Source: Spirochaetia bacterium (GTDB lineage: Bacteria; Spirochaetota; Spirochaetia; SZUA-6; Bin103). From it: DNA of 64,000 nucleotides. Made by a program: the position numbers and the translations under genes. The notes under the pieces are model-generated. The model saw nothing but the letters and a program-made list of their open reading frames with translations. It was not told where the DNA came from and searched no databases. Positions 15,290 through 32,884 of the stretch are shown here, piece by piece. Numbering within the stretch: the first letter of the stretch is position 1; each line of letters starts with the position of its first letter. The stretch spans positions 864,463 to 928,462 of the forward strand of contig OZ251575.1 of assembly GCA_965243555.1 (NCBI GenBank), given 5' to 3'.

Positions 15290-15443
15290 CCGGAGGGCCG
15301 ACGCCCCCTTACCATCGTCGCAGCTTGCGGCTGGCGCAAGCGCAACAGGCGCTGTCGTTAGGCCGGTCGCGCCGCCCGCCGGGATTGAGCCCCCGGCGCG
15401 CGGCATCCAAAAAATTTGGGCGCGTATACTCGCGGATGCTCTC

Positions 15444-15460
15444 CTTACTGTGAAGACACC
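15444..15460 (+). repeat. 17-bp perfect direct repeat CTTACTGTGAAGACACC, copy 1, upstream of the recombinase gene.
   Basis: Exact match to 16896..16912, read directly from the sequence. A 17-mer coincidence is negligible at 64 kb. Confidence 0.8.
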
Positions 15461-15800
15461 CCTACCCCCCCTCCCCCCGGTCGAACCCCCCCGGCACCCG
15501 TAGACGGGCGCACGCTCACCTACTCCACGCGTCCGCGGGCAAGTTGCACACGGATTGCCCGCGCGGCCCGCCGCGCGCCGAGTGAACGAACAGCGGTGGC
15601 TATTCAGCTCCTGCCGGTGCGCGCTGGGGGGGCGCCCTCCGGGGCGACAGCTCGTAGCCGGACCGCACCCCCCGCGCACGGGCGGCCCGGCCCGGCGCGC
15701 TCCCATCCGCACGCCCCTGCATGGTGGCCCGGGCGCGCCGTCATAGCGCCGCGCCGGGTCGCTGCCGGGCGCAAAACCACCCGTTTCGCTTGACCTGTGT

Positions 15801-15830
15801 TATCGCCTATGATTACACTTATAGGCGATG
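15801..15830. promoter_or_regulatory. Inverted repeat TATCGCCTAT-N10-ATAGGCGATg overlapping the recombinase start codon and putative promoter (TTGACC at 15790).
   Basis: The arms match 9/10 bp. A -35-like TTGACC lies 5 bp upstream. Candidate operator or recombinase-binding site. Confidence 0.45.
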
Positions 15831-17660: not shown

Positions 17661-18464
17661 TCAGCCGGCAGCGAGCACCGCTACGAGGTTGGAGCGCTGC
17701 AGCAGGTCGGCGTCGGCGGAGCGCTCCAGGAAAGGACGGACGTCGCCGATGAGCTGACCGACGTCAAGCCCCGCGAGTTGTGCGCGAAGGATCGACCGCC
17801 ACTCCCGCGCCCGGTAGCGGCCGACGCCTTCGGTCTGATCCAGGGCGCTCTGCAGCAACGGCAGATTCGGCTCCACCGGCGGGCGCCGCGTTCGGTACCA
17901 CACCAGATCGTACCAATCCCGGCCCTTCCGGTAGCGGCGGGTCAGGAGCGCGTGCAACTTCCCGGCCATCAGCGACGGCAGATCGTAGTGCGCCACCACG
18001 AAGGTCACGCCGCGTGTTACGATCGTGCGTTCGATGTGCGCCCCGGCGGGCGGGCGGGTGTCGATCTCGATCTTGATGGCGAGTTTCTGTTGCGGATGAC
18101 CGGACAGCCCTGTCTCGGCGAGCAGCGAGGAGGTCCGTACCCACGCTACCTGTACGGTCCGGCGGTCATTCCAGCGAACGGTACTGTCGAAACCGGCGAA
18201 GTGGAGGTCGCGCTTCAGCTTCTCCAACCAGACGCGCGGGTGGTATTCCGCCGCCGAGGTGCGACAGAAGTCGAGGTCCTCGGAGAAGCGCGGCAGATCC
18301 TCCAGCAGCCGGAGCGCGGTACCGCCCACAAACGCCACCGACCGTGACGCTTCGCTCTCGTGCAACGACCTCAGGGTGAAAACCTGGAGGTACTCGCGTA
18401 GCGCGTTGAGGCGTTGCGTGGGGTCGGTGTAGCGCTCGGCGGCGGCGAGCGCCTGCTCCTTCAC
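17661..18464 (-). CDS. abiEii: AbiEii/AbiGii-family nucleotidyltransferase toxin (type IV TA), ~267 aa.
   Basis: Family-typical motifs: FVGGTALRL, LPRFSEDLDF, and the C-terminal DWYDLVW. The GTG start at 18464 overlaps the TGA of abiEi (GTGA). Confidence 0.75.
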   Translation of the reverse strand: MKEQALAAAERYTDPTQRLNALREYLQVFTLRSLHESEASRSVAFVGGTALRLLEDLPRFSEDLDFCRTSAAEYHPRVWLEKLKRDLHFAGFDSTVRWNDRRTVQVAWVRTSSLLAETGLSGHPQQKLAIKIEIDTRPPAGAHIERTIVTRGVTFVVAHYDLPSLMAGKLHALLTRRYRKGRDWYDLVWYRTRRPPVEPNLPLLQSALDQTEGVGRYRAREWRSILRAQLAGLDVGQLIGDVRPFLERSADADLLQRSNLVAVLAAG

Positions 18465-19102
18465 AGTTCCTCGCCTTCGTCGTCGTGCAGGGAGCGGCAC
18501 TCCTGCCACACCCGCACGGCATGCCGAATCCGCGGCTTGCCCATACGCCGCGCAAGGGCGGCGAGGCGGCCAAGGTCGAACAGTTCGGTCTGCTGGAATC
18601 GCATCTCCGCCATCCGGTCGACATCCCACGCGCCGGGCGTCAGGTGGAACAGGTCAAGCAGCGCCTTCTCCACCGTGGCGACGATTGCGTCGCTGCCCGC
18701 GACCCGGACGGTGCGGTACCCGAAGAAGAACTCCCGCTTCACGTTGCGGTAGCTGAACGTGCCGAGCCGGTTCGCGAATTCGCGCGGGGTGCGCGTGGTG
18801 ACGCTGGTGTAGACCGGCACGCTTTCGGGAATCACGCCGTAGAAGCTCAGCGCCCACGCGCCGCTCAGGTAGGACGGGGCGTACAACGCGTTGGCCAGCG
18901 CGGCCGGCGCCAGCGGCGCGCGCCGGTAGCGGTCGGCCAGCGTGTAGCGGCCGCGGCGCAGGGCGACCACCTTGCCGGCCCGGCCCCAGCGGTGGAGCTG
19001 GCTCACCACGCTCGCCCGCGGCGCCGCGCTGAGCTGGGTCACCGTCGCCAAGTCGAACCACGGCTCCGCGCCGAGCAGCTCCACGACCGTGTCAAATCTC
19101 AT
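18461..19102 (-). CDS. abiEi: AbiEi-family antitoxin / transcriptional regulator (213 aa).
   Basis: The N-terminal wHTH-like region and C-terminal domain fit AbiEi (COG5340-like). It is immediately upstream of, and overlapping, the AbiEii toxin gene. Confidence 0.7.
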   Translation of the reverse strand: MRFDTVVELLGAEPWFDLATVTQLSAAPRASVVSQLHRWGRAGKVVALRRGRYTLADRYRRAPLAPAALANALYAPSYLSGAWALSFYGVIPESVPVYTSVTTRTPREFANRLGTFSYRNVKREFFFGYRTVRVAGSDAIVATVEKALLDLFHLTPGAWDVDRMAEMRFQQTELFDLGRLAALARRMGKPRIRHAVRVWQECRSLHDDEGEEL

Positions 19103-19208: not shown

Positions 19209-20756
19209 TCAGCCGGCGGCCACCTCGAAGGCGGTCACGTTGCGAGTCGCGCGGCTGAACTCCACCCCGAGCAGGTGGATCGGCTCGCGCCCGTCCCGGT
19301 ACTTGGCGGCGTAGTCGCGCTCCCGCAACTGCGCCAGCGCGGTCCCCTCCCCCGCCTGCTCCGTTACCTTGAACTCGAACAGGTACACCTGCCCGCCGGC
19401 CCGCACCGCCATGTCCAGCCGCCCGACCGCGCTCGAATCCTCCACCACAATGTCATAGCCCAGCGCCGCGAAGTAGGAGTAGAACACGCTCGCGTAGTAG
19501 CCCTCGTAGCGGGCGATGTCGTTGTTGGAGTGCCACTCATACGGGATGCTCGCAAAGAAGGCGTGGAACAGCTCCCGCAGCCCGGCGCAGTCGGCCGCTT
19601 CCAGCAGGCGCGCCAGGCGGAAGCTGTTGGCCATCTGCCGGTCTCCGTCCCGCACCAGATGGCGCAACAGCACGTCGTTCAGGCTCTGCCGCACCTCCCG
19701 GTTCGGGTAGCCCAGCCGGTACACTGCCCTCCCGCCCAGCTCATCTTCCGCCTTGATCGTCAGGTAGCCGGTCTGGAACAGCAGCGCCTGGGTGCCTATG
19801 TGCTCCACGTCGAACGCCGACAGCAGCTCCTCGGTACCGACCATGTCGGCCAGCGACACGGTGGAGACTCGCCGCTCAAACAGCGTGTCGATCAGGAACG
19901 CCGGCGAGCCGGTCTCGAACCAGTGGGGCTTGAACTTGCGGCTGTCGAACAGCAGCAGCAGGTCAAACGGGTTGTACACCTTCTCGTCGCCCAGCCAGCA
20001 GTACCCGTTGTACCACTCGCGGATGCGATCGCGGTCCAGCCCCGGCAGCTCCGGGGCGAATACGGTGTCCAGGTCTTCTTCGGTGTAGCCGCAGATCGCC
20101 GAGTAGCGCGGGTCCAGCGTGAGGTCGGTGAGGTTGTTGAGGTCGGAGAACAGACTCATCTTGGAGAACTTGCTCACCCCGGTCAGGAAGGTAAAGCGCA
20201 CGTGCGCTTCACTGTCCTTGATCACCCCGTACAGACCGCGCAGGAAGGCGCGGTTGGCGCGGGCTACCTCGGGGGTTTCCAGCGCGTCCAGGATCGGCTT
20301 GTCGTACTCGTCCACCAGCACCGCCGCCTGCTGCCCGGTACGCTCGTGCAGGGCTTCCAGCAGGGATGCGAAACGGCCCGGCGCCGTCAGGTAGTCCGCC
20401 TCCACCCCGTTGCGCCGCTCCACGGCCGCGAGCTGCTCCATGACGTTGTCCCGCAACAGTCCCGGCTCCCTGAAACTGCCGCCGCCGAAGCTGAGCCGCA
20501 CCACGGGATGGCGCTGCGACCAGTCATGGCGTCCGTGGACGTGGAGCCCCTCGAACAATGCCTTGCTGCCCTCGAACAGCTCCTTGAGCGTGTCCAGAAA
20601 CAGACTCTTGCCGAACCGCCGCGGCCGCGACAGAAAGTAGTGCGTGCCCCCGTCGAGCAGACGTTCGACGTAGGGCGTCTTGTCCACGTAGTAACAATTC
20701 CGCTTGCGGAGCGTGCGGAAGGTCTGGATGCCGGTGGGCAGCCTGCGCCGGACCAT
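19209..20756 (-). CDS. Paralog A1: AAA-ATPase-like N-terminal domain plus C-terminal PD-(D/E)XK nuclease-like domain (~515 aa).
   Basis: N-terminus MVRRRLPTGIQTFRTLRKRNCYYVDKT..YFLSRPRRFGKS (the predicted-ATPase family signature). The C-terminus has D...FEFK (PD-(D/E)XK). I trimmed the track ORF to the Met homologous to the A2/A3 start. Confidence 0.7.
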   Translation of the reverse strand: MVRRRLPTGIQTFRTLRKRNCYYVDKTPYVERLLDGGTHYFLSRPRRFGKSLFLDTLKELFEGSKALFEGLHVHGRHDWSQRHPVVRLSFGGGSFREPGLLRDNVMEQLAAVERRNGVEADYLTAPGRFASLLEALHERTGQQAAVLVDEYDKPILDALETPEVARANRAFLRGLYGVIKDSEAHVRFTFLTGVSKFSKMSLFSDLNNLTDLTLDPRYSAICGYTEEDLDTVFAPELPGLDRDRIREWYNGYCWLGDEKVYNPFDLLLLFDSRKFKPHWFETGSPAFLIDTLFERRVSTVSLADMVGTEELLSAFDVEHIGTQALLFQTGYLTIKAEDELGGRAVYRLGYPNREVRQSLNDVLLRHLVRDGDRQMANSFRLARLLEAADCAGLRELFHAFFASIPYEWHSNNDIARYEGYYASVFYSYFAALGYDIVVEDSSAVGRLDMAVRAGGQVYLFEFKVTEQAGEGTALAQLRERDYAAKYRDGREPIHLLGVEFSRATRNVTAFEVAAG

Positions 20757-20769
20757 TCGTTCTCTTACC

Positions 20770-22662
20770 TCACACCCACGCCAGCAGCTCAAAGACGGTG
20801 TTGGCAAGCAACGTTTCGCCGTTGCCCACCAGGTAGACGATGTCCTTATCCGTATTAACCGTAGTGCCCGACCATTCCCGTTGTAACACTATCTTGACCC
20901 TGCGAACGGTGGCATCGTTCGTGGCCGACACCAGGTAGACGTTTGCGCCCAACCCGGTAACCCTTTGGTTCCACAGGACAGACGCCGCGAATCCCGTCCA
21001 CGGCAGAACCACTTCGGAGACTACCGCCGCACCGATCTTGACGCGAAACACGAGACCCAACCACGAATTCGGCAGCCGCCGCGGAACGTTCATCTCGCTT
21101 ACCCCACGCGCCGGTGACACCAGGTCGAATCCTGCGGGCGCCGTCCCCTCGATGACCCAGTTGACCGGCGGAAGCGTAGACGCGGAGTACAAGCCGGCGG
21201 CGGGCGACAGCGTCGCTATCAGCGCGCCGACGTGATTCGGCGTCCACGCCGCCGGCGTCTCGGTGCCGTCCGCAGCGACTTTGACCCACGAAAGCGTGCC
21301 GGCGGTCTCGTCCAGGCTCTTGACGTGCTGCTCGCGCGCCTCCGCCTGCAGCCGCGCCTTGCTCATGGTGCGGTAGCCGTACAACGACGCCTCAGGGTAT
21401 GCCGTAACCGCCTTCGACGCCGTAAACGCGGCCACGTAAAACCCGACGTCGCCCAAGTACAGAATCCCAGCAGCAGGGTCGTATGCCGCCCCCGTCAACC
21501 CGCGAAAGCCGGACCGGCCTGCCGTTACCTGCGAACCGGTGAGGGTAAGCCCCGGAACTTCTTTACCGGTGGCTACGTTGTAGGCGTACACCGCGTCTCC
21601 GCTGCCCCCGTAGATCAGCACGTCCCCTACGAACGTCGCAGCGCCGACCCCCTCCGTTCCCGGCAGCTTCACGTGCTTGGTAGCCGTGCCGCTCTTGAAC
21701 ACGCGCGCAAGACCGAACCCGTCAATCACCCACAGATCGTTGTCGTGCCATGCCATACACCACACGCTTCCCAACCTGCCAACGGCCAACTTGGAAACTT
21801 TGATCTCGTCCCCGGCCACCTCCTCGGGCCTTTGCTCAGCCGTTCCGGGGTGCGACAACCTGAACACCTTGATCGGCTTACGGTACCCGTCCGCCGTAAT
21901 CGCGAGCTTTTTGCTGGTGTGGTTGTAGGACAGTCCATGGACCGGAGCAACACCAGTCCCGGTGATGTCCGCGCCGGGAAACCTGCGACCGTTCTTGAAC
22001 GCGAAGACTCTGCCCGAACGAGTACTGCCAACGAGGACCACGCCATTCTCAACGACTTCCAAGGCGCCTGGCTTGATCCTGCCCAACTCAGTCGCATCAA
22101 TGTCCTTGCTGCTATCTCGGTTCCACCCCGTTACCGCGCCATGCGTGAGCCGAAAATTGATCCTCACGTATGCCGGGGCCTCAGTGCTCAGCACAGCAGG
22201 ATCGCCGCCAAGCGCCTCCGCGGTGACGATCGCCAGGGTATCGGTGGTCCCCGTGTCCTTGATCACCTTCTCAATGCTCTTCCTATCCGTCACCGCCGCC
22301 TCCGCAGTGGCGCCCATCTGCAAGATAAGCGCATCGACCGTGCCGGCGGCGAACAGGTTGGCCAGCGTCCGAGAGGCGTCATGCGGCAAAGTCGTCACCT
22401 TGAACTTGCCGGCGTCCCGGTTGCCGCTCGTACCCACGCGCACGTAGGAAAACTGCGCAGTCACCGCCCCGTCCGCGCTAATCGGGAACGTGCCCTGATA
22501 GGTCCGCGTCCGGGCGTTGTGCTCCAGCCGCACTACGTGAGGATCGGACTTCTGAATCGCCTCCAGACGCCACTCTTTGACCGGATCAAGCGCCCGTTGC
22601 GCGAACTTGTCGGCTGCGGCCAATTCACGGCCGGCTTGCGGCCGGGGATTGGTAACCGCCAC
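20770..22662 (-). CDS. Paralog B1: large protein (630 aa) with a beta-propeller-repeat body related to the phage tail protein, plus the conserved B-family C-terminal domain.
   Basis: GTG start per the track. The body shares repeats and the motif LSWVKVAADGTETPAAWTP with the 3931..7593 tail protein (NVLSWQDKAADGTTTPRQWTP). The C-terminal ~110 aa are homologous to B2 and B3. The 5' end sits out of frame behind a leader module. Confidence 0.55.
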   Translation of the reverse strand: MAVTNPRPQAGRELAAADKFAQRALDPVKEWRLEAIQKSDPHVVRLEHNARTRTYQGTFPISADGAVTAQFSYVRVGTSGNRDAGKFKVTTLPHDASRTLANLFAAGTVDALILQMGATAEAAVTDRKSIEKVIKDTGTTDTLAIVTAEALGGDPAVLSTEAPAYVRINFRLTHGAVTGWNRDSSKDIDATELGRIKPGALEVVENGVVLVGSTRSGRVFAFKNGRRFPGADITGTGVAPVHGLSYNHTSKKLAITADGYRKPIKVFRLSHPGTAEQRPEEVAGDEIKVSKLAVGRLGSVWCMAWHDNDLWVIDGFGLARVFKSGTATKHVKLPGTEGVGAATFVGDVLIYGGSGDAVYAYNVATGKEVPGLTLTGSQVTAGRSGFRGLTGAAYDPAAGILYLGDVGFYVAAFTASKAVTAYPEASLYGYRTMSKARLQAEAREQHVKSLDETAGTLSWVKVAADGTETPAAWTPNHVGALIATLSPAAGLYSASTLPPVNWVIEGTAPAGFDLVSPARGVSEMNVPRRLPNSWLGLVFRVKIGAAVVSEVVLPWTGFAASVLWNQRVTGLGANVYLVSATNDATVRRVKIVLQREWSGTTVNTDKDIVYLVGNGETLLANTVFELLAWV

Positions 22663-22820
22663 ACCTTCGGCTCGCCCGTAATCGCTACCGCCTGCGTCTC
22701 CTTCCCGCTCGAAATGATGACGTTCGTAGCCGCAAGCAGTGCCTCATTATGCCGCAGTGCAGCCTCGAACTCGGAGGGCTGTGGGTTCGATTGCCGTCTC
22801 GGCCCCGTAGGTCGCAGCAT
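22533..22820 (-). pseudogene. Leader-module ORF (MLRPTGPRRQSNPQPSEFEAALRHNE...) that runs out of frame into the B1 body.
   Basis: AGGAGG-N8-ATG leader near-identical to the B2 5' end. The reading frame is offset by 1 nt from the B1 frame. This may be a recombination junction, a frameshifted gene, or a site of programmed frameshifting. Confidence 0.35.
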
Positions 22821-22824
22821 CAGC
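22778..22824. repeat. Conserved leader-module core (type I) upstream of B1.
   Basis: About 47 bp (CGATTGCCGTCTCGGCCCCGTAGGTCGCAGCATCAGCTCCACCTCCT) near-identical to 24606..24652. It contains the RBS and start of the leader peptide. Confidence 0.7.
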
Positions 22825-23107
22825 TCCACCTCCTTGCATCTTTGCATCTTTGCGCAGCCGCGCCGTAGCGTGCCAGTTCAGACCCATTCGTATACCTCAA
22901 TGGTTGCTTGGGCCGGAATCTCATTGCCATTACCACGCACGTCAAGCTTGTGTCCGCGCGGTCCGGGTCGGCATCCGGTACCTTCGGCGTGCCCGGAATC
23001 GCTACCGCTACCGACTCCTTCCCGCTCGGAATGGTGACGTTCGCCGCCGCCGTAAGCAGTTGCTCGTCGTACCGTAGCGCCTGCTCGAACTCAGCCCGCC
23101 CTACCAC
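22820..23107 (-). pseudogene. Truncated B3-type 5' gene fragment (VGRAEFEQALRYDEQLL...DPDR, then divergent).
   Basis: It matches the B3 N-terminal ~50 aa and diverges after DPDR. It is preceded by a type II leader carrying ACG in place of the ATG. Confidence 0.4.
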
Positions 23108-23177: not shown

Positions 23178-23224
23178 TGATGGCCGTTTCGGCCCGTAGG
23201 GTCGCAACGTCAGGTCCACCTCCT
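23178..23224. repeat. Conserved leader-module core (type II, with start codon mutated to ACG) upstream of the truncated B fragment.
   Basis: Near-identical to 29628..29677. Confidence 0.7.
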
Positions 23225-24638
23225 ATACCCATGCGCGCAATTCGAAAGTGGTATTGGTCTTGATAGGCGTGTTGTTGCCAATTACAAATAGCGCATCCTT
23301 GCGTGGACGGATGTACTCTCGCTGCAGCGCCAACTTGATGTTGCGCCTCGTCCTGTCATCGGTCGCATTGATGATGTAAACTGATGTACCCAAATGGTCT
23401 TCGACTTCGCTTTGCCAGGCTGATCCTGTCCGGAAAGGCAACCACGGGACGTACACCCTCTCTATTACCTTCACCCCGACCTTCACCACGACGACCAACC
23501 CCAACCAGGATTCCGGAAGCACCCTGGGAACGTTCATCGAACCGAAGACATGCGGCGGGCCGACCCGGTCGAAGCCCGTCGGAATGCCGCTTGAAAACAC
23601 CCAGTCGGCTCCGGGGCGCGCGCTAGCCCCTGGCGTTCCCGCCGGCCACTCTAGTGTTGCTACCAAGGCCCCCACGTGAGTCCTCGGGGCCGCGTCCGTG
23701 GGTGAAAGGGATACGCCAAGGTCCGCGGTGATGCGGAACGTGCGAGACTCCGCTGCTCCCTGGTAGGTCCAGTAGTAGCCGGTGGTGTTGTTGGCGTTGC
23801 GGCCAAGGTAGAAGTGAACTTCGCCGAGCTTGACGTTCGACCGGTACACGCCTACGCCGCCGCCGATCTCCAGCCCCTCCACGGGGTCGCCAACTTCCCA
23901 ACTCGCCACCGCCGCAAGCTCCGAGAGAAAGACAATCTCGGTGATGTCGTGCGTCCTATTATTGTCGGTGGTGAAGCCAATATCGTCGGTCCTGCCGCCG
24001 CCGGTGATCGTCAGGGTCAGCGACACGTACAGCTCTCCGCGGTTGTAGTCGTCCAGGTCCAATGGCGTGCTGAACGGAATCAGCGCGGCACCACTAACTT
24101 GGTTGTCGGAGCTGTCATTCACGTCAAGGGCAGCGATGGTGGCGCGATCTTCCAGCACGGTGAGGCGCGGAACAGGGGGCAGCTTTACCGCCGCGATCTT
24201 CGACGCGTTCGAACGGCGCGCCCACGGTTCAAGGTCAATCGAAGACACCGTGATCGCTACCGAGTAGGTGCCCGCCCGATCCGCGGAGAACAGGAACTGC
24301 GAATCGGTCGACCGCGCCAGCATGCAGAGCGTGCTGCCCATCGAATGCACGACGGCGTTCTTTGAATTCAGCTCCGCGCCGCGCGTAACTACCGGCTTCG
24401 CCAGCAAGGCCGACAGGTCGAACCGCACGGCGCTGACGCCCACCTTCCATATCACCTCACGGTCCGGGTCGGCATCCGGCACCTTCGGACTGTCCGTGAT
24501 CAATGCCGCCTGCGTCTCCGACCCGTTTTGAATGGTCACGCTCTTCGCCGCAGGCCATGGCTCGTTATGCCGTAGCGCCGCCTCGAACTTGGAGGGCTGT
24601 GAGTTCGATTGCCGTCTCGGCCCCGTAGGTCGCAACAT
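23223..24638 (-). CDS. Paralog B2 (~471 aa): fused leader, B-type body, and conserved C-terminal domain.
   Basis: AGGAGG lies 8 nt before the ATG at 24638. The N-terminus is MLRPTGPRRQSNSQPSKFEAALRHNE. The body is homologous to B3. The C-terminus is homologous to B1 and B3 (NVPRVLPESWLGLVV...FELRAWV). Confidence 0.55.
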   Translation of the reverse strand: MLRPTGPRRQSNSQPSKFEAALRHNEPWPAAKSVTIQNGSETQAALITDSPKVPDADPDREVIWKVGVSAVRFDLSALLAKPVVTRGAELNSKNAVVHSMGSTLCMLARSTDSQFLFSADRAGTYSVAITVSSIDLEPWARRSNASKIAAVKLPPVPRLTVLEDRATIAALDVNDSSDNQVSGAALIPFSTPLDLDDYNRGELYVSLTLTITGGGRTDDIGFTTDNNRTHDITEIVFLSELAAVASWEVGDPVEGLEIGGGVGVYRSNVKLGEVHFYLGRNANNTTGYYWTYQGAAESRTFRITADLGVSLSPTDAAPRTHVGALVATLEWPAGTPGASARPGADWVFSSGIPTGFDRVGPPHVFGSMNVPRVLPESWLGLVVVVKVGVKVIERVYVPWLPFRTGSAWQSEVEDHLGTSVYIINATDDRTRRNIKLALQREYIRPRKDALFVIGNNTPIKTNTTFELRAWV

Positions 24639-24652
24639 CAGGTCCACCTCCT
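24606..24652. repeat. Conserved leader-module core (type I) at the B2 5' end.
   Basis: Matches 22778..22824. Confidence 0.7.
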
Positions 24653-24717
24653 TACATCTCTCTGTGCCGATAGTAGCTCACCTCGCCGTCCACCGCCACC
24701 GTGCCACCCACCGCAAT

Positions 24718-26583
24718 CTAGTCGTTGTCCAGGATGGTGACGGTCGCCGTGCACCGCCCCCCGCAGGTTACGTTGGTACTGTGAGGCCGATCATCAGTTG
24801 GGGTCAGGCCGATTTCCTCCAGATCGCGCGTGCTGAGCGGGCCGATGTGCAGCTGGAACGTCTCCGTCTCTTCTTTGACGAGATCGCCGACTATGCGAAA
24901 CTGAATTTCTTGTGAACACCGAGGGTCATCGTCGCCCGGCGCACGACTGCAAGGGGGGTTCCCGGTGAAGTAGCCCCAAACAAAGTCGATGATTCCGCTA
25001 CGTAAATTAATAGGAAAAAGAATCGTGTAGTCGGTGCCAGAGCAGCTTCCCGAAGGGGTGTGCTGCGTCCGGGGTGAGGTGCACGGGGTTGCCGTGCCCG
25101 GCGTAGCCCAGTATTTGAAATACAAGTGCTCGGGGATTGAGGTCACATTAAGGTATATCTTGACCTGTACCCATCCGTTCTCGTAGCCTTCGGTTAAAGT
25201 ATCGTCGCGTTCCGTAAAGGTATAGGTCAGGTCGGCGAACGAGATCGTCGGCGGCGTCTCCTCGGCCGGTGGAGGGACTGGGGCCGGCGGCTCCGCGGTT
25301 GGCGGCGCCGGCTGCTCGGCCGGTGGCGGCGCTGGGGCGGTGGTGAACGACCACACCTTGCCAAAGCCCTCTAACCCGCTTTCGTTCAAGGCATCCACCA
25401 TCCAATAGTAGCGCGTTTCGGGCGCCAGCTCCGCCGACGTGGGGATCCTCAAGAAGGTAGACGTGGTTCGAGTCGACCTGTTCCGCCAAAGGAGCTCACT
25501 TGTGGTGCTCCAGTACACATTGTAGTGGGTAGCGCGGGGCGCGGCGGCCCAACTCAAAAGCGGCCCGGCAACCGTCACGCCGGTCGCCCCGTCGCGCGGC
25601 TGCGGGTTGCTGGCATATCCGGGAGCGCGTATGGTGGTGAACGACCACACGTTGCCGCGGATGGTGCCGGCTTCGGTCTTTACGTCCACCCGCCAGTAAT
25701 AGCGCGTTTCCCACAGCCGAGGCGCCCAGGCGCCAACCTCATAGGAGTTGTTCACGGTATTGAGCGGCCATTCCGTACCCTCAAGGCCGTCCGCGGGGAG
25801 ATCGTTCGTGGTGCCCATGTAGAAGTCGTAGCTGAGAGCGCCGGGCGCGGCGTCCCAACTGAAAGTTACTGCGCCGCGGCTCACGCCGGTCGCCCCGTTG
25901 CGGGGCGACGGGTTCCTGGCAGCTCCGGGAGGGCCGGTTGCGGGCGGCGGAGCACCGTCGCCCGGCGGCGGACTCGGAGCCGGCGGCGTCTCATCGCCCG
26001 GGGCCGGACCTGGGGCGGGCGGCGTTTCATCGTCGCGCGGCGACGGACCCACGGTCGGCGGCGCGGGCCGGCCGGCGGGGATGGTCGGCGCCACGTCGTC
26101 CGGCAGGGTTTCCAGGTCGAAGTCATCCGGCAGGTCGATCACTCGCGCTATGCACTCGTCGTTGGTGTTGACCACGCAGCTCGAGCCGTCGGCGCGGCGG
26201 CTGAGGACGTACAACCGATTACCGCCGGGGTAACGGATCACGATCAGATAGTACTGCGACTGCTGCGCCTGCTCGGTCCGGCCGTCCGGCACCGACAAGC
26301 CGGCCTGCAGCGACTGATTCGCGGGGTCCATGCAGGTGGCCGGCGCGGTGGCGCCGCCCATGTGCAGCTTGTCGGAGACGATCGCGCCGTGGACTCCCGC
26401 GCCGCGGTCGAGCAGCCGAATTGCCGAGTCGTCGCACGAGGCCTGCGGCGCGGCCGGCGCCGGGTTCGCCGCAGTCTCCGGCTCCGGGTCCGGGGTGACC
26501 GCCGCCCCGCAGGCGGCCAGGATTGCGGTCAGCGCGAACAGCGCCGCCCACCGTGTCCACAAGCGTTTCGTTGTCTTTATCAT
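24718..26583 (-). CDS. Paralog L1: secreted lipoprotein (~621 aa) with a Pro-rich linker, FN3-like repeats, and a C-terminal Calx-beta-like domain.
   Basis: Signal peptide plus lipobox (LTAILAAC). YYWRVD...VWSFTT FN3-like motifs occur twice. The C-terminal TVTILDND resembles a Calx-beta end. The first ~230 aa are near-identical to L2. I trimmed the start to MIKTTKRLW. Confidence 0.6.
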   Translation of the reverse strand: MIKTTKRLWTRWAALFALTAILAACGAAVTPDPEPETAANPAPAAPQASCDDSAIRLLDRGAGVHGAIVSDKLHMGGATAPATCMDPANQSLQAGLSVPDGRTEQAQQSQYYLIVIRYPGGNRLYVLSRRADGSSCVVNTNDECIARVIDLPDDFDLETLPDDVAPTIPAGRPAPPTVGPSPRDDETPPAPGPAPGDETPPAPSPPPGDGAPPPATGPPGAARNPSPRNGATGVSRGAVTFSWDAAPGALSYDFYMGTTNDLPADGLEGTEWPLNTVNNSYEVGAWAPRLWETRYYWRVDVKTEAGTIRGNVWSFTTIRAPGYASNPQPRDGATGVTVAGPLLSWAAAPRATHYNVYWSTTSELLWRNRSTRTTSTFLRIPTSAELAPETRYYWMVDALNESGLEGFGKVWSFTTAPAPPPAEQPAPPTAEPPAPVPPPAEETPPTISFADLTYTFTERDDTLTEGYENGWVQVKIYLNVTSIPEHLYFKYWATPGTATPCTSPRTQHTPSGSCSGTDYTILFPINLRSGIIDFVWGYFTGNPPCSRAPGDDDPRCSQEIQFRIVGDLVKEETETFQLHIGPLSTRDLEEIGLTPTDDRPHSTNVTCGGRCTATVTILDND

Positions 26584-26663
26584 CGTCAGTCTCCTCTCGG
26601 AACGGTCGCCAGTGCCCTGGGTATAACCCAGCGAGCGAGCGAATCTCCTGCGCGGCTCTGGTC

Positions 26664-28076
26664 CTAGTCGTCGTCTATGATCGTGAGTTTCGCCCGGCAC
26701 CGGCCGCAGGTCACCGGGAAACCTTTATGAGGGATGACTTCTATGAATACCGTCTCATTTTCTTCCTTTACCCGATCGCCGATAATGACTGGCCCATGAC
26801 TAAACGGCCCGCAGACTCGGTGTGGCGAACCTTCAGGAATATTGCGGCACGGCTCCATCTCATAGTGCGCGGAGAAATCAACCCAGTCGACTCCTTCCGC
26901 CACCCTCATTTGAAGATCGAAGTGCCCGTCGGTCGCCGTGCCCCCGCCCATCTTAAAGAAAATATGGAGGTCCCGGGCCGCCGTGACGGGCGAACTCAAG
27001 GTCACCTCGAAGTCGACATCAAAATACCCGTCGTCGCCTTCGAGAACGCTCTGATCGGCAGAAAGCGATATCGTCGGCTGCGCTGGCGTCTCCTCGGCCG
27101 GTGGAGGGGCTGGAACTGGGGCCGGCGGTGGCGCCGCGGCAGGAGCGGTGGTGAACGACCACACGGCGCCGCGGGTGGTCCCGGCTTCGTTCTTTGCGTC
27201 CACCCGCCAGTAGTAGACCGTTTCGGCATCCAGATCCGCCGAGGCTGAGATCCTCAAGGCCGTGAACGAGGTGTTGATCGGCGTATCCAGGTCGGTGTTC
27301 TCGGCGCCCCAGTACACGTCGTAGCTGAGCGCGCGCGGCGCGGCGGCCCAACTCAAGAGCGGACCGCCAACCGTCACGCCGGTCGCCGCGTCACTCGGCT
27401 GCGGACTGGTGGCAGCTCCGGGAGGCGTGCCGGCTGTGGGCGGCGGCGCACCGTCGCCCGGCGGCGGACTCGGAGCCGGCGGCGTCTCATCACCCGGGGC
27501 CGGACCTGGGGCGGGCGGCGTTTCATCGTCGCCCGGCGACGGACCCACGGTCGGCGGCGCGGGCCGGCCGGCGGGGATGGTCGGCGCTATGTCCTCCGGC
27601 AGGGTTTCGAGGTTGAAGTCATCCGGCAGGTCGGTCACTCGCGCTATGCACTCGTCGTTGGTGTCGACCACGCAGCTCGTGCCGTCGGCGCGGCGGCTGA
27701 GGACGTACAGCCGATTACCGCCGGGGTAGCGGATCACGATCAGATAGTACTGCGACTGCTGCGCCTGCTCGGTCCGGCCGTCCGGCACCGACAAGCCGGC
27801 CAGCAGCGACTGATTCGCGGGGTCCATGCAGGTGGCCGGCGCGGTGGCGCCGCCCATGTGCAGCTTGTCGGAGACGATCGCGCCGTGGACTCCCGCGCCG
27901 CGTTCGAGCACGCTGATCGCCAGGTCGTCGCACGAGGCCTGCCGCGCGGGCGGCTCCAGGTTCGCCGGCGGCTCCAGGTCCGGGGTGACCGCCGCCCCGC
28001 AGGCGGCCAGGATTGCAGTCAGCGCAAGCAACGCCGCCCACCGTGTCCACAACCACAATGCTTTCGTTGTCTTCAT
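26664..28076 (-). CDS. Paralog L2: secreted lipoprotein (470 aa) with an FN3-like repeat and a C-terminal Calx-beta-like domain.
   Basis: Start MKTTKALWLWTRWAALLALTAILAAC (lipobox). C-terminal motif KLTIIDDD. The N-terminal half is near-identical to L1. The C-terminal region is lower in GC. Confidence 0.6.
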   Translation of the reverse strand: MKTTKALWLWTRWAALLALTAILAACGAAVTPDLEPPANLEPPARQASCDDLAISVLERGAGVHGAIVSDKLHMGGATAPATCMDPANQSLLAGLSVPDGRTEQAQQSQYYLIVIRYPGGNRLYVLSRRADGTSCVVDTNDECIARVTDLPDDFNLETLPEDIAPTIPAGRPAPPTVGPSPGDDETPPAPGPAPGDETPPAPSPPPGDGAPPPTAGTPPGAATSPQPSDAATGVTVGGPLLSWAAAPRALSYDVYWGAENTDLDTPINTSFTALRISASADLDAETVYYWRVDAKNEAGTTRGAVWSFTTAPAAAPPPAPVPAPPPAEETPAQPTISLSADQSVLEGDDGYFDVDFEVTLSSPVTAARDLHIFFKMGGGTATDGHFDLQMRVAEGVDWVDFSAHYEMEPCRNIPEGSPHRVCGPFSHGPVIIGDRVKEENETVFIEVIPHKGFPVTCGRCRAKLTIIDDD

Positions 28077-28107
28077 CGTCAGTCTCCTCTCCGCACTAAC
28101 GGGGTTG

Positions 28108-29556
28108 TCATATCCACTGGAGCAGCTCGATGGAGGTGCCGGCCTTGATCTGCTCGGCGTTGCCCACGACCTCGAGGCGGTCCTTCGTCGTACTGGCCCA
28201 CTCGCGTTGCAGCACCAGCTTCACGGTGCGTGCCGTGGAGTCGTCACTTACGAGCAAATGGAATACGTTCGTGCCGAAGGGGGAGGGTCCTATCCGACTG
28301 TCCCAGGCAACGTCTTCGTGGATGGGGACCCAGGGAAGGAATACCTGCGACACCGTATTGGTGGTGCCCACCTTCGTCCGCACTACCACGCCCGCCATGT
28401 TATCCGGCAGCACCCTCGGAACGTTCAACTGCCCGTTGCTGCCTCCGGTCGCTTCGAAATCACGGGGAGCCCCGCTTTGCACCACCCAGGCCGCAGCCGG
28501 GCGCGCATTCGCCGCTAGCGTGCCGGCAGGAATGTCAAGCTTGGCAATCAACGGTCCGACGTGTCCGGTAGACGAAGTAGCCGCGGGCGCGTCAGTCCGC
28601 GAGAACGACACCTCCATCGTGGCGGTCAGTGTCACATCCGACCCGCTCGTCCCGCCACCGGAGTAGCGCAGCAGGTAACCGAGCTCGTTGTTGGCGTTCT
28701 TGGCAAAGTAGAACGACAGCAGACCCAGTTGGTTGAAGCTATCGTGCAGGTACACGCTGGAACCGACCGGCTCCCCGTGAAAGGGCCCACTGCTCACGTA
28801 CGTACCCAGTGCAGATACATCCGATGCCAACACTACTCCGTCGAACGTGTAGGTACGGTCCTCGTTCGTGCCGAAACCGGCCACTAGCACCGAACGATCG
28901 TCGAAGGTAACCGTCATCACCACGTGCAACTCGCCGGTCCGGTGTTCGTCCAGATCGAATGCCGGCGCCAGCGCCCTGAACGAGCCGGTTGACATGCTGT
29001 TGGTGTTATGGATGCGCATCCCGACAGCCCTCCCGGCGTGCAGAATCTGCAGCCCGGTCAGCTTCCGCACGCGCGCGTCGACCTGTGCCTGCGTCAGCCA
29101 CGGCGACGGCAGATTCGCCGCCGCGACCTTCGTCGCGTTCGACCGGCGCGCCCACGGTTCAAGGTCAATCGAGGACACCGCGAGCTCCACCGAGTAGGTG
29201 TCCGCCCGGTCCGCGGAGAACAGGAACTGCGAAGCGGCCGTCTCCGACGCGGCCGTCCGCGCCAGCATGCAGAGCGTGCTGCCCACCGAGAACACGACGG
29301 AGTTGGTTGAATCCAAGACCGTGGTCGTCGTAACTGTCACCGCCGGCTTCGCCCGCAACGCGGACAGGTCGAACCGCACGGTGCTGCCGTCCACCGTCCA
29401 TATCACCTCACGGTCCGGGTCGGCAGCCGGCACCTCCGGCGTGCCCGGAATCGCTACCACTACCGATTCCTTCCCGCTCGCAATGGTAACGGCCGTAGCC
29501 GGGAGCAGTTGCTCGTCGTACCGTAGCGCCCCCTCGAACTCGGCACGCGCTACCAT
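28108..29556 (-). CDS. Paralog B3 (482 aa): B2-like body and conserved C-terminal domain, preceded by a leader uORF.
   Basis: Its ATG lies within AAATGGTAG and overlaps the uORF stop. The N-terminus MVARAEFEGALRYDEQLL is homologous to the B2 segment SKFEAALRHNE. The body (STLCMLAR..SSIDLEPWARRSNA) is homologous to B2. The conserved C-terminus ends ..ELLQWI. Confidence 0.55.
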   Translation of the reverse strand: MVARAEFEGALRYDEQLLPATAVTIASGKESVVVAIPGTPEVPAADPDREVIWTVDGSTVRFDLSALRAKPAVTVTTTTVLDSTNSVVFSVGSTLCMLARTAASETAASQFLFSADRADTYSVELAVSSIDLEPWARRSNATKVAAANLPSPWLTQAQVDARVRKLTGLQILHAGRAVGMRIHNTNSMSTGSFRALAPAFDLDEHRTGELHVVMTVTFDDRSVLVAGFGTNEDRTYTFDGVVLASDVSALGTYVSSGPFHGEPVGSSVYLHDSFNQLGLLSFYFAKNANNELGYLLRYSGGGTSGSDVTLTATMEVSFSRTDAPAATSSTGHVGPLIAKLDIPAGTLAANARPAAAWVVQSGAPRDFEATGGSNGQLNVPRVLPDNMAGVVVRTKVGTTNTVSQVFLPWVPIHEDVAWDSRIGPSPFGTNVFHLLVSDDSTARTVKLVLQREWASTTKDRLEVVGNAEQIKAGTSIELLQWI

Positions 29557-29663
29557 TTGGCACCCGCCTCAATCCGCTCCCGCACCGGCGGCGGCGCTAT
29601 CAGCCGGCCGCGGCGGGGGCTGGGGCCCGATGGCCGTTTCGGCCCCGTAGTAGGTCGCAACAT
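29550..29663 (-). CDS. Leader uORF (37 codons, MLRPTTGPKRPSGPSPRRGRLIAPPPVRERIEAGAKW) upstream of B3, translationally coupled to it.
   Basis: AGGAGG lies 8 nt before the ATG. Its stop TAG overlaps the B3 start (ATGGTAG). It is the same leader as B2, with a ~75-nt insertion. Confidence 0.35.
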   Translation of the reverse strand: MLRPTTGPKRPSGPSPRRGRLIAPPPVRERIEAGAKW

Positions 29664-29677
29664 CAGGTCCGCCTCCT
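29628..29677. repeat. Conserved leader-module core (type II) at the 5' end of the B3 uORF.
   Basis: Matches 23178..23224. Confidence 0.7.
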
Positions 29678-29767
29678 GCATCCGTGCCCGGTCGTCGGAC
29701 AGTGCGAGCTCCAGGATTGGGTGTATCCATGCGCGTGTCAACCCGGCAAGCCCGGCCGGCCGGCGGG

Positions 29768-31315
29768 TCAGGCGTCGTCGGCCTCGAAGGCGGTCAGGGT
29801 GCGCGTCTTGCGGCTGAACTCCACGCCGATCAGGTGGATGGACTTACCGCGGCCCAGGTACTTGGCGGCGTAGCCGCGCTCCCGCAGCTGCGCCAGCGCT
29901 GCCCCCTCCCCCGCCTGTTCCACCACCTTGAACTCGAACAGGTAGACGTGGCCGCCGGTCCGCACCGCCATGTCCAGCCGCCCAACCGCGCTCGACTCCT
30001 CCACCACAATGTCATAGCCCAACGCCGCGAAGTAGGAGTAGAACACGCTGGCGTAGTAGCCCTCGTAGCGCGCGATGTCGTTGTTGACGTGCCACTCATA
30101 CGGGATGCTCGCAAAGAACGCTTGGAAAAGCTCCCGCAGACCGGCGCAGTCGGCCGCTTTCAGCAGGCGCGCCAGGCGGATTCTGTCCGCCGTCTGCGCC
30201 CGGGCGCCCGGCGCCAGGCGGCGCAACAGCACGCGGTTCAGGCTCTGCCGTACTTCCCGGTTCGGATAGCCCAGCCGGTACACCTGCTCCCCGTCCAGGT
30301 CCTCCTCGTCCGTGATCGTCAGATAGCCGGTCTGGAACAGCAGCGCCTCGGTGCCTATCTCCTCCACGTCGAACGCCGACAGCAGCTCACGAGTGCCGAC
30401 CATGTCCTCCAGCGAAACGGTGGAGACCTGCCGCTCGAACAGCGTGTCGACCAGGAACTTCGGCGAGCCGGTCTCGAACCAGTAGGCATCGAACTCGCGG
30501 CTGTCGAACAGCAGCAGCAGGTCAAACGGGTTGTACACCTTCTCATCGCCGCGCCAGCAATAGCCGTTGTACCACTCGCGGATGCGCTCGCGGTCCAGCC
30601 CGGCCAGCTCCGGGGCGAACACCGTGTCCAAGTCTTCCTCGGTGTAGCCACAGATCGCGGAGTAGCGCTGGTCCAGCGTGATGTCGGTGAGGTTATTGAG
30701 CTGCGAGAACAGGTTCACCTTGGAGAACTTGCTTACGCCGGTCAGCAACGCAAACCGTATGCGCGCGTCGCTCGCCTTGATCACCCCGTACACGTTGCGC
30801 AGAATGTCGCGGTTGGCGCTCGCCACGGCCGGCGTGCCCAGCATGTCCAGGATCGGCTTGTCGTATTCGTCCACCAGCACAACCACCCGCCGCCCGCTCC
30901 GTTGGTGCAGCACTTCCAGCAGGTGCGCGAAGCGGCCCGGCACCGTAAGAGCGTCCGTCTCCACCCCGTGGCGCCGTTCCTCGGCCGCGAGCAGGTCCAC
31001 GAGGCTGTCCTCCAACAGGTTCGGCTGCCGGTAGTCGCCGCCGGCAAAGTCCAGCCGCACCACCGGATTGGGCTCGCCCCAGGTCCAACCGGCATGGACG
31101 CGGAGCCCCTCGAACAGCTTCTCGCTGCCTTCGAACAGCTCCTTCATGGTGTCGACGAGTAAGCTCTTCCCGAACCGCCGCGGCCGCGACAGGAAGTAGC
31201 GCGTCCCTTCGGCGACCAGACGTTCGATGAAGGCGGTCTTGTCGACGTAGTAGCAGTTCTCCTCCCGCAGCACGCGGAAACTCTGGATGCCGATCGGCAA
31301 CCGGCGCTTGACCAT
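29768..31315 (-). CDS. Paralog A2: AAA-ATPase-like plus PD-(D/E)XK protein (515 aa).
   Basis: MVKRRLPIGIQSF...YFLSRPRRFGKS. The C-terminal 150 aa are almost identical to A3. Confidence 0.7.
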   Translation of the reverse strand: MVKRRLPIGIQSFRVLREENCYYVDKTAFIERLVAEGTRYFLSRPRRFGKSLLVDTMKELFEGSEKLFEGLRVHAGWTWGEPNPVVRLDFAGGDYRQPNLLEDSLVDLLAAEERRHGVETDALTVPGRFAHLLEVLHQRSGRRVVVLVDEYDKPILDMLGTPAVASANRDILRNVYGVIKASDARIRFALLTGVSKFSKVNLFSQLNNLTDITLDQRYSAICGYTEEDLDTVFAPELAGLDRERIREWYNGYCWRGDEKVYNPFDLLLLFDSREFDAYWFETGSPKFLVDTLFERQVSTVSLEDMVGTRELLSAFDVEEIGTEALLFQTGYLTITDEEDLDGEQVYRLGYPNREVRQSLNRVLLRRLAPGARAQTADRIRLARLLKAADCAGLRELFQAFFASIPYEWHVNNDIARYEGYYASVFYSYFAALGYDIVVEESSAVGRLDMAVRTGGHVYLFEFKVVEQAGEGAALAQLRERGYAAKYLGRGKSIHLIGVEFSRKTRTLTAFEADDA

Positions 31316-31339: not shown

Positions 31340-32884
31340 TCAGGCGTCCGCCGCCTCGAAGGCGGTCAGGGTGCGCGTCTCGCGGCTGAACTCCACGCCA
31401 ATCAGGTGGATGGACTTACCGCGGCCCCGGTACTTGGCGGCGTAGCCGCGCTCCCGCAGCTGCGCCAGCGCCGCCCCCTCCCCCGCCTGCTCCACCACCT
31501 TGAACTCAAACAGGTAGACGTGGCCGCCGGTGCGCACCGCCATGTCCAGCCGCCCAACCGCGCTCGACTCCTCCACCACAATGTCATAGCCCAGCGCCGC
31601 GAAGTAGGAATAGAACACGCTGGCGTAGTACCCCTCATAACGGGCTATGTCGTTGTTGGTATGCCACTCATACGGGATGCTCGCAAAGAACGCTTGGAAA
31701 AGCTCCTGCAGGCCGGCGCAGTCGGCCGCTTCGAGCAGGCGCTCCAGGTGCGTGCTGTTGGCCATCTGCCGCGCATCGTCCCGCACCAGATGGAGCAGCA
31801 GATGCTCATTCAGGCTCTGCCGCACCTCCCGGTTCGGATAGCCCAGCCGGTACACCGTTCTCCGGCCGCGCTTCACTTCCGTGATCGTCAGGTAGCCGGT
31901 CTGGAACAGCAGCGCCTCGGTGCTTACGTGATCCACGTCGAACGCCGACAGCAGGCGCTCGGTGCCCACCATCTGCTCCAACGATACGGAGGAGACCCGC
32001 CGCTTGAACAGCGTCTCCACCAGAAACGCCGGCGAGCCGGTCTCGAACCAGTGGGCGTCGAACGTGCGGCGGCGCAGCAGCAGTAGCACGTCGAACGGGT
32101 TGTAGACCTTCTCCTGGCCCAGCCAGCTATAGCCGTTGTACCAGGCGCGCACCTCCTCCCGGTCCAGTCCTCCGAGCTCCGGCGCGAACACGGTGTCCAA
32201 GTCGCCTTCCGTGTAGCCGCAGATCGACGAGTAGGCCGGCTCCAGCGTGATGTCGATAAGGTTATTGAGCTGCGAGAACAGGCTCATCTTGGAGAACTTG
32301 CTCACCCCGGTCAGAAACGTGAACCGTACGTGCGCGTCGGAGTCCTTGATCACGCCGTACACGCCGCGCAGGAAGCCGCGGTTGGCGCGGGCCACCGGCG
32401 GCGTCTCCAGCGCATCCAGGATCGGTTTGTCGTATTCGTCCACCAGCACCACGACCCGCCGGCCGGTCCGTTCATGCAGGGCTTCCAGCAGGTGCGCGAA
32501 GCGGCCCGGAACCGTGCGGGAGTGCGCATCCACCCCGTGGCGCCGTTCCATCGCCTCGATCTGCTCCAGGACGTTGTCCGCCACCAAGTACGGCTCGGTG
32601 AAGCTGCCGCCGGCGAAACTCAGCCGCACCACCGGATTGGGCTCGCCCCAGGTCCAGCCGGGGTGGATGCGGAGCCCCTTGAACAGCTTCTCGTTGCCCT
32701 CGAACAGCTCCTTCAGCGTATCCAGGAACAGGCTCTTGCCGAACCGCCGCGGCCGCGACAGGAAGTAGTGCGTACCTTCGTCGACCAAGCGTTCAATGAA
32801 GGCCGTCTTGTCGACGTAGTAGCAGTTCCGCTCCCGGATCCTGCGGAAGCTCTGGATGCCGATCGGCAACCGGCGCTTGACCAT
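31340..32884 (-). CDS. Paralog A3: AAA-ATPase-like plus PD-(D/E)XK protein (514 aa).
   Basis: Same family as A2. The first ~40 nt of the CDS and the ~25 nt upstream are identical to A2. Confidence 0.7.
   Translation of the reverse strand: MVKRRLPIGIQSFRRIRERNCYYVDKTAFIERLVDEGTHYFLSRPRRFGKSLFLDTLKELFEGNEKLFKGLRIHPGWTWGEPNPVVRLSFAGGSFTEPYLVADNVLEQIEAMERRHGVDAHSRTVPGRFAHLLEALHERTGRRVVVLVDEYDKPILDALETPPVARANRGFLRGVYGVIKDSDAHVRFTFLTGVSKFSKMSLFSQLNNLIDITLEPAYSSICGYTEGDLDTVFAPELGGLDREEVRAWYNGYSWLGQEKVYNPFDVLLLLRRRTFDAHWFETGSPAFLVETLFKRRVSSVSLEQMVGTERLLSAFDVDHVSTEALLFQTGYLTITEVKRGRRTVYRLGYPNREVRQSLNEHLLLHLVRDDARQMANSTHLERLLEAADCAGLQELFQAFFASIPYEWHTNNDIARYEGYYASVFYSYFAALGYDIVVEESSAVGRLDMAVRTGGHVYLFEFKVVEQAGEGAALAQLRERGYAAKYRGRGKSIHLIGVEFSRETRTLTAFEAADA

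Follow-up and report, generated by a model that had tools for sequence, protein, structure and literature searches.

A tandem lipoprotein gene pair of a Spirochaetia bacterium with a near-identical 5' part and divergent Calx-beta-like tips

The L1 and L2 genes and their modules

Two adjacent genes of a Spirochaetia bacterium, which we call L1 and L2, encode predicted lipoproteins that are nearly identical over much of their N-terminal part and differ strongly at their C-terminal ends. We analysed them in the 64,000-nt stretch of contig OZ251575.1 in which they lie (hereafter the window, numbered from its first letter). As a first-pass annotation of this DNA had it, the pair sits between genes of a second family, B: the minus-strand run B3-L2-L1-B2 is compact, with intergenic gaps of 31, 80, and 70 nt. 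The list of open reading frames (ORFs) starts L1 at a GTG at 26700, which makes it overlap L2. A ribosome-binding site (RBS), GAGAGGAG, stands before the ATG of both L2 and L1 (26583), and the similarity between the two genes starts exactly there. L1 was therefore taken as a 621-aa protein whose start is likely the ATG at 26583. Scans for consensus promoters and terminators over 24400-29900 gave counts at chance level only, which is compatible with co-transcription of B3-L2-L1-B2, and neither Rfam families nor tRNAs were found in the window. The genes and their parts are as follows (GC3, GC content at third codon positions).

28108..29556, minus strand: B3, neighbor upstream of L2 (31-nt gap); member of a family without Pfam domain, modelled by AlphaFold2 as three beta-sandwich domains
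26664..28076, minus strand: L2 gene, 470 aa, from the ORF, the alignment with L1, and family matches
27999..28076, minus strand: L2 signal peptide with lipobox LAAC (Cys26), fitting [LVI][ASTVI][GAS]C
27567..27932, minus strand: L2 conserved N-terminal domain, aa 49-170, with four invariant Cys
27430..27895, minus strand: L2 side of a 97-100% identical DNA tract, partner of L1 25934-26399
27144..27410, minus strand: L2 FN3-like repeat, aa 223-311, a mosaic of L1 repeats b (5') and a (3')
26667..27074, minus strand: L2 putative divergent Calx-beta domain, aa 335-470, four Cys, GC3 ~0.66
24718..26583, minus strand: L1 gene, 621 aa from the likely ATG at 26583, RBS GAGAGGAG as in L2
26509..26583, minus strand: L1 signal peptide with lipobox LAAC (Cys25)
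26071..26436, minus strand: L1 conserved N-terminal domain, aa 50-171
25934..26399, minus strand: L1 side of the 97-100% identical DNA tract (repeat family D6, 95% over a 300-nt block)
25630..25914, minus strand: L1 FN3-like repeat a, aa 224-318
25336..25629, minus strand: L1 FN3-like repeat b, aa 319-416 (Pfam Ig_Rha78A_N, 25.9 bits)
25249..25335, minus strand: L1 Pro-rich linker from FN3-like repeat b to the Calx-beta-like domain, with members of D9, a 43-nt GC-rich repeat
24721..25248, minus strand: L1 putative divergent Calx-beta domain, aa 446-621, six Cys, insertions of ~50 aa, GC3 ~0.69
25945-26023, 27081-27123, and 27441-27519: other linkers bearing D9 members
23223..24647, minus strand: B2, neighbor downstream of L1 (70-nt gap), 42% identical to B3

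Both proteins begin with a lipoprotein signal that has a basic n-region, a hydrophobic core, and a lipobox (L1, MIKTTKRLWTRWAALFALTAILAAC; L2, MKTTKALWLWTRWAALLALTAILAAC), and the lipobox motif is retained in members of the wider L family described below. There follows a globular domain of 122 aa in which four cysteines are invariant. It is absent from the first-pass description and is marked across the family by the motifs HGAIV.D.LH.GG and YYLIVIRYP.GNRLYV. No relatives of this N-domain were found in Pfam, NCBIfam, or PDB sequences (the last by profile search). In L2, the N-domain is followed by a Pro-rich linker, one FN3-like repeat, a second linker, and a Calx-beta-like domain; in L1, it is followed by a linker, two FN3-like repeats, a linker, and a Calx-beta-like domain with insertions. 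All four linkers are encoded by members of the D9 family. The previously described PAPGDETPPAP linker and the protein endings TVTILDND and KLTIIDDD are all present. L1 repeat b reached 25.9 bits against PF25788 (cutoff, 27.4) and an E value of 0.036 against PF00041, and many family members carry precomputed matches to PF00041, PF25788, or PF16656.

At the DNA level, L1 and L2 are 85% identical across the first ~950 nt (blastn), but this average hides an abrupt profile. The similarity starts at the RBS, amounts to 87 to 93% with a 6-nt indel just past the lipobox, rises to 97 to 100% over ~465 nt (nt ~185 to ~650 counted from the ATG, in 60-nt steps), and drops sharply to 50 to 77% at the start of the first FN3-like repeat. 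The near-identical block thus comprises the leader, the 122-aa N-domain, and the proline-rich linker. It had been proposed that the shared N-terminal half also includes the first FN3-like repeat; the leader and the linker are indeed shared, but the repeat lies beyond the drop, and the FN3-like repeats of the two proteins are just 50 to 59% identical. The 5' 90 nt of the L2 repeat resemble the second L1 repeat (87 to 93%) and its 3' 70 nt resemble the first (82 to 87%), a mosaic that points to further patchy exchange.

A search with L1 retrieved at least 194 homologues (E ≤ 1e-3), none of which is named. Their N-domains are 52 to 100% identical among the 112 best-aligned members, most have one to four FN3-like repeats, and their C termini consist of Calx-beta, F5/8 type C, He_PIG, GGGSG repeats, or other unannotated domains, or lack a tail altogether. 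Calx-beta is the final domain in about a quarter of the family, as it appears to be in L1 and L2. We then scanned one genome per species (185,579 species) for the N-domain and found 13 loci, only in three complete chromosomes that are metagenome-assembled genomes (MAGs) titled Spirochaetia bacterium. OZ251573.1 accounts for 11 of these loci, and tblastn adds two adjacent copies there; the 4.97-Mb contig of the window itself holds at least seven family members. Several family loci are truncated (L012 to L014). The curated libraries PHROGs, NCBIfam, and PADLOC contained nothing for L, for B, or for the neighboring A genes described below beyond generic FN3 matches. Together, these results define L as a large, unannotated, and modular family that has so far been found only in high-GC Spirochaetia MAGs.

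The C-terminal domains as divergent Calx-beta domains

The C-terminal domains of L1 and L2 align with each other directly, albeit weakly (tblastn, E 1e-4; 33% identity over 130 aligned codons). Their common frame consists of TIS-AD..EG, GTAT, and (I/V)GD.VKEE.ET, followed at the extreme end of the protein by VTCG(G)RC.A..TI.D.D; the center of the tip, between these motifs, is hypervariable, and L1 carries ~50 residues of Cys-rich insertion between GTAT and the GD..KEE strand. An I.D[DN]D ending is found in 29 of 120 listed L-family members. We compared both domains with a profile, A2, built from seven L-family tails, and obtained hhalign probabilities of 97.8% for L1 (E 6.5e-13) and 98.0% for L2 (E 2.2e-13). 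All seven tails behind A2 pass the Pfam Calx-beta model PF03160 (best E, 1.3e-11). Against the PDB, A2, rather than L1 or L2 directly, matched chains of Na/Ca exchanger (NCX) calcium-binding domains (CBDs) at E 7.2e-17 and further proteins down to integrin beta-4 at 3e-3.

By this transitive profile evidence, the two C-terminal domains hold as homologous, divergent members of the Calx-beta family. The "Calx-beta-like" label of the first-pass annotation is thereby borne out, and its statement that the two domains are unrelated in sequence is not. That annotation had proposed C-terminal domain swapping by horizontal acquisition and had named homology of the C-terminal domains as the finding that would speak against it; since the domains are homologous, the proposal fails by its own standard.

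Calx-beta domains occur in NCX (CBD1 and CBD2), in integrin beta-4, and in large bacterial adhesins, and the L family has their motifs GTA..DY, GD..(D/E)E.DETF, and a terminal DDD. The acidic motifs of NCX CBD1 bind calcium, and we take the L-family motifs to correspond to them. Unlike canonical Calx-beta domains, the L1 and L2 tips lie below Pfam detection, contain Cys-rich insertions of up to ~50 aa, and have VKEE in place of part of the acidic motif. They also differ in that they always close the protein with CGRC..TI.DDD.

Because the proteins combine a lipobox, paired cysteines in the N-domain and in the tips, a proline stalk, FN3-like spacers, and a terminal Calx-beta-like domain, we read them as extracytoplasmic and lipid anchored. 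The chain would run from a lipid-anchor signal through the Cys-containing N-domain, the proline-rich stalk, and the FN3-like spacers to the Calx-beta tip, and the L proteins would be exposed outside the cytoplasm. The variable tip may be a ligand-binding or recognized surface under diversifying selection. The lipobox, the conserved cysteines, and the pairing of FN3-like with Calx-beta modules agree with their earlier designation as surface or adhesion-type lipoproteins, which we keep as a putative one.

Origin of the tips and of the near-identical 5' part

A phmmer search of 1.84 billion representative proteins with the L1 C-terminal domain yielded six sequences that pass E 1e-3: the protein itself, P0121, P0041, two repeat artefacts, and one generic Calx-beta protein. 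Full-domain relatives of the L1 tip are thus confined to P0121 (52% identity) and P0041, both of the L family, and this full HMMER search revealed no donor for the domain outside the family. The nearest relatives of the L2 tip, P0019 (57%), P0015 (47%), and P0046 (41%), are all L-family members as well. A word-indexed homologue search with the L2 domain gave no matches, which reflects a limitation of the tool, given the evident relationship to P0019 and others.

P0019 derives from a different assembly and is collinear with L2 from end to end except for one extra FN3-like repeat. The two have a synonymous divergence (dS) of 0.18 in the N-domain and of 0.29 in the Calx-beta domain, with sliding-window values of 0.1 to 0.7. 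From the collinearity and from dS values of similar magnitude throughout, it follows that the L2 tip was inherited with the rest of the gene.

The lower GC content of both C termini was confirmed. Total GC is 0.525 to 0.575 at 24900-25299 (L1) and 0.545 to 0.595 at 26700-26999 (L2), and GC3 is 0.685 in the L1 C-terminal domain and 0.659 in that of L2, compared with 0.897 in the N-terminal parts of both genes. Core genes in the window have a GC3 of 0.909 ± 0.043 in 140-codon windows, and none of 631 such windows is as low as the two tips. Elsewhere in the window, GC3 values of 0.70 or less occur solely in the phage-like portal and adaptor genes and in single windows of AbiEii and B2.

A dip of more than 5 standard deviations below the core genes would be accounted for if lower-GC donors had supplied the C-terminal domains by horizontal transfer, each being joined to the same N-terminal scaffold. 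The diversity of C termini in the family (Calx-beta, F5/8 type C, He_PIG, and GGGSG repeats) also fits that explanation, as does the phage-like character of the other genes with windows this low, the portal and adaptor genes. However, the two tips are of one family-specific Calx-beta type, no relatives outside the family were seen among the 1.84e9 representatives, and the L2/P0019 dS values are similar in the two domains. Furthermore, the cognate domains are also GC3 poor in other assemblies (0.38 to 0.70 in P0019 and 0.45 to 0.70 in P0041), although they are just 42 to 57% identical to those of our pair. In P0041, the Calx-beta domain is internal and is flanked on either side by FN3 windows with a GC3 of 0.85 to 0.95. 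Since the dip persists while the domain proteins have diverged to 42 to 57% identity, it is old and stable and not the fading signal of an import. The pattern is also family wide: L-family tails mostly have a GC3 of 0.61 to 0.78 and full-length N-domains have 0.82 to 0.92, with one conserved canonical Calx-beta tail at 0.89. Homology, the lack of a donor, collinearity, and the shared dip largely refute horizontal acquisition of the tips, which we regard as very improbable. Modules are indeed shuffled within the L family, but the difference between L1 and L2 does not stem from such shuffling.

How, then, did the dip arise? Across 216 forty-codon windows of 22 genes, GC3 correlates with the number of L-family members that share a segment (Spearman rho 0.44, p = 1e-11). 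Recombining bacterial genes have been reported to have higher GC3 (PMC4450053). We infer that the low GC3 reflects AT-biased mutation in rarely recombining or fast-turning-over segments rather than foreign origin; segments that often recombine, with paralogues or within the population, would stay GC rich, and unique ones would drift toward AT.

L1 and L2 themselves differ by a dS of 0.079 in the N-domain and of 1.64 in the Calx-beta domain. Set against the L2/P0019 values of 0.18 and 0.29, this means that the 5' parts of the pair are younger than the split from the P0019 lineage and that the tips are much older. Adjacency, the same orientation, and the same RBS would all result from a simple recent tandem duplication, and the fast evolution of the Calx-beta domain might then account for a 3' half that diverged in place, with no conversion or recombination. 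Duplication followed by divergence does not, however, produce a dS of 0.079 in one domain and of about 1.6 in the other. In addition, the L2 tip is far nearer to tips of other assemblies, P0019 (57%) and P0015 (47%), than to that of L1 (about 30%), and the L1 tip is nearest to P0121 (52%); the two tip lineages are therefore older than whatever event brought the 5' parts into agreement. The patchwork of both L1 repeats in the L2 FN3-like repeat likewise argues against such a duplication, which we consider quite improbable. The dS pattern is instead the signature of gene conversion or recombination that homogenized the 5' ~670 nt of neighboring paralogues. The homogenized part would extend from the RBS to the end of the first linker and would be recent, and the GC-rich linker repeats may have served as junctions of the tract; D9 repeats are plausible junctions for module exchange more generally.

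The tips also change quickly at the amino acid level. Between L2 and P0019, the nonsynonymous divergence (dN) increases from 0.03 to 0.1 in the N-domain to 0.4 to 0.65 in the center of the Calx-beta domain, where dN/dS reaches 1.05 to 1.63 before it falls again at the conserved C-terminal end. Relative to the N-domain, the nonsynonymous excess in the Calx-beta domain has an odds ratio of 3.0 (p = 0.009). A dN/dS of about 1 might mean that L1 and L2 are decaying paralogues whose tips, under relaxed constraint, record a lost function in their low GC3 and dN/dS; the truncated family loci L012 to L014 and the rearranged 5' end of the neighboring B1 gene would agree with that. Yet the reading frames of 470 and 621 codons are intact, the Cys pairs and the motifs GTAT, KEE.ETF, CGRC, and TI.DDD are kept across tails that are about 25 to 57% identical, and dN/dS is raised only in the Calx-beta center. 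Decay thus appears extremely doubtful.

Altogether, we think it probable that L1 and L2 are a tandem pair from a modular family of spirochaete lipoproteins, in which conversion homogenized the 5' part and the tips are old, fast diversifying, GC3 poor, and not imported. The two tips would represent old, separate lineages of one Calx-beta domain that did not come from outside, and they would change rapidly in amino acids while keeping a conserved frame around a hypervariable center.

Several points weigh against this reading. The L1 and L2 domains on their own give no match to PF03160, even at E ≤ 1, so that the case for their Calx-beta homology is made through the family profile as an intermediate, together with a direct match that is weak, and the acidic calcium-site motif is partly replaced (VKEETETF and VKEENETV versus LDDE.DETF). 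The AlphaFold2 model of the N-domain, made from a shallow 17-sequence alignment, was unusable, with a predicted local distance difference test score (pLDDT) of 41.9. The GC3 correlation was computed over windows that are not independent of each other, and the account of low GC3 by biased gene conversion and AT drift goes beyond that correlation; the tips could also have been exchanged within a common, lower-GC gene pool of related spirochaetes. Finally, the L1/P0041 comparison shows the same direction of nonsynonymous excess without reaching significance (p = 0.13), and a dN/dS near or above 1 over ~100 codons, which is not itself significantly greater than 1, could reflect relaxed constraint.

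Neighboring genes, known systems, and significance

Beyond the B3-L2-L1-B2 run, the window contains the following genes.

3931-7776: adaptor-like gene of an SU10-like podophage
9007-9963: major head gene, SU10-like
11284-13131: portal gene, SU10-like
13535-15289: terminase gene, SU10-like
15828-16817: tyrosine integrase
17661-18629, minus strand: AbiEii (PADLOC, E 8e-65)
18461-19102, minus strand: AbiEi (PADLOC, E 4e-44)
19209-20807, minus strand: A gene (Pfam AAA-ATPase_like and PDDEXK_9)
20770-22662, minus strand: B1
29768-31315, minus strand: A gene (same Pfam domains)
31340-32884, minus strand: A gene (same Pfam domains)

The SU10-like region 3931-16817, with a GC3 of 0.72 to 0.81 that lies below that of the core genes, is probably a prophage or a prophage remnant. 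The AbiE abortive-infection/toxin-antitoxin pair at 17661-19102 is complete. The three A genes are paralogues, 75 to 78% identical, that bracket the B/L array, and A homologues adjoin L genes at loci L010, L012, L017, and L019.

The B family has 45 members, no name, and no Pfam domain. B2 and B3 share an N-terminal module and B1 has a different N-terminal region; all three proteins have a common C-terminal module of ~150 aa, and the region between the modules differs. The AlphaFold2 model of B3 (pLDDT, 72.6) shows three beta-sandwich domains, and fold searches of the PDB and BFVD returned only weak, generic jelly-roll or lectin matches (template modelling scores, 0.1 to 0.2). B1 is preceded by two minus-strand fragments of the B N-terminal module, at 22533-22847 and 22820-23107. 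As the first fragment abuts the B1 start in a different frame, B1 looks rearranged or frameshifted at its 5' end. Intact fusions of the N-terminal module to a B1-type body exist at L017 (352-2346) and L019 (1876-4377). The first 170 aa of B1 also resemble a segment (5713-6222) of the 1281-aa SU10-adaptor-type protein encoded at 3931-7776 (32% identity, E 2e-15), which links the B family to phage tail-associated proteins.

B genes adjoin L genes on other contigs too (L017, L018, and L019). In L018 (5028-8268 of scaffold_2686, ena ERZ23495812), a B-like gene in two ORFs and an L gene lie between atpG and atpD in the same orientation; no repeats were found flanking this insertion in the ATP synthase operon. 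In OZ251573.1 (L001, 10001-11641), an L gene directly follows atpC.

Some phages encode lipoproteins beside receptor-binding genes, and these act in superinfection exclusion or receptor masking. The B proteins might accordingly be tail-fibre-like receptor-binding proteins and the L proteins partnered accessory genes of a prophage, which could act in superinfection exclusion or receptor masking. Such a phage-linked module would be in keeping with the SU10-like prophage genes (adaptor, head, portal, and terminase), the integrase, and AbiE at a distance of 5 to 20 kb, with the 170-aa segment common to B1 and the adaptor-like protein, with the B-L adjacency on the three other contigs, and with the beta-sandwich model of B3. 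At the loci recovered from OZ251573.1, however, the L copies are located among housekeeping genes, with no B gene except for one short fragment (L004), and a search of 2.9 million viral contigs yielded neither B nor the N-domain of L. Moreover, B has no PHROG match, L has generic FN3 matches only, and the fold matches of B are weak and generic. We therefore treat this explanation as unlikely. The B and A genes are leads that we kept outside the explanation of the pair.

It is a long shot that the A-B-L arrays form an undescribed, mobile, self-diversifying surface-variation cassette of high-GC spirochaetes. In such a cassette, a phage-derived, receptor-binding-like beta-sandwich protein (B) would be paired with a lipoprotein (L) whose Calx-beta tip is hypervariable. 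The two genes would move as a unit and could land inside housekeeping operons, as in the copy between atpG and atpD, and their modules would be reshuffled at the repeat-encoded proline linkers, a process that the flanking AAA-ATPase/PD-(D/E)XK nuclease genes (A) might promote.

L1 and L2 belong to a known kind of system, that of paralogous, variable envelope lipoproteins. LigA and LigB of Leptospira are lipoprotein adhesins with identical N-terminal and nonidentical C-terminal regions (PMC3133549). Like them, the L proteins are spirochaete lipoproteins with tandem Ig-like repeats, a common 5' part, and distinct distal parts. Unlike Lig, which is built from Big_2 repeats, they have a nonrepeat N-domain, a proline stalk, FN3-like repeats, and a Calx-beta-like tip, and there is no sequence relationship; a Pfam scan of L1 and L2 detected no Big_2 domains, nor did NCBIfam give a match. 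By analogy, the Lig family would be the closest counterpart in logic, not in membership.

In Borrelia, Vsp/Vlp, VlsE, and the cp32 prophage-borne Erp/Mlp proteins are multicopy lipoproteins with a conserved leader or N-terminal part and variable exposed parts, whose paralogues recombine; some are encoded beside prophage genes. The L family differs from these in that it has no sequence similarity to them, other domain content, and no silent cassettes in the window: in a search for silent donors, blastn (word size, 7) of both C-terminal domain DNAs against the 64-kb window recovered only the 3' 54 nt of each other. Programmed antigenic variation is thus not indicated for L1 and L2. The tips were also considered as targets of a diversity-generating retroelement, a possibility that we rejected since the window holds no template-like repeat and a nonexhaustive ORF scan found no reverse transcriptase.

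FN3-type, eukaryote-like adhesion domains have been discussed for sponge symbionts (PMC3909097). The L family resembles the adhesion-domain proteins of host-associated marine bacteria in its FN3-like plus Calx-beta-like content, in its multiple copies, and in the nearby sulfatases and sugar-binding proteins, a likeness that is only a lead. At loci L015 and L016, sulfatases, solute-binding proteins, a DUF4143 ATPase, and a Transposase_31 (PD-(D/E)XK) gene flank the L genes. These flanks hint at a habitat that is rich in polysaccharides and may be host associated.

This pair illustrates that a sharp drop of GC3 within a gene need not signal foreign DNA; here, it marks a fast-evolving tip that has escaped homogenization. 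L1 and L2 offer a clean, small case in which one half of a gene evolves in concert while the other persists as long-lived, divergent lineages. The analysis also defines the L family, none of whose members (at least 194) has a name or a curated model of the N-domain. This family appears to be a major variable component of the envelope in an uncultivated group of high-GC Spirochaetia, and it is a concrete candidate for the means by which this group alters what its cell surface displays or binds.

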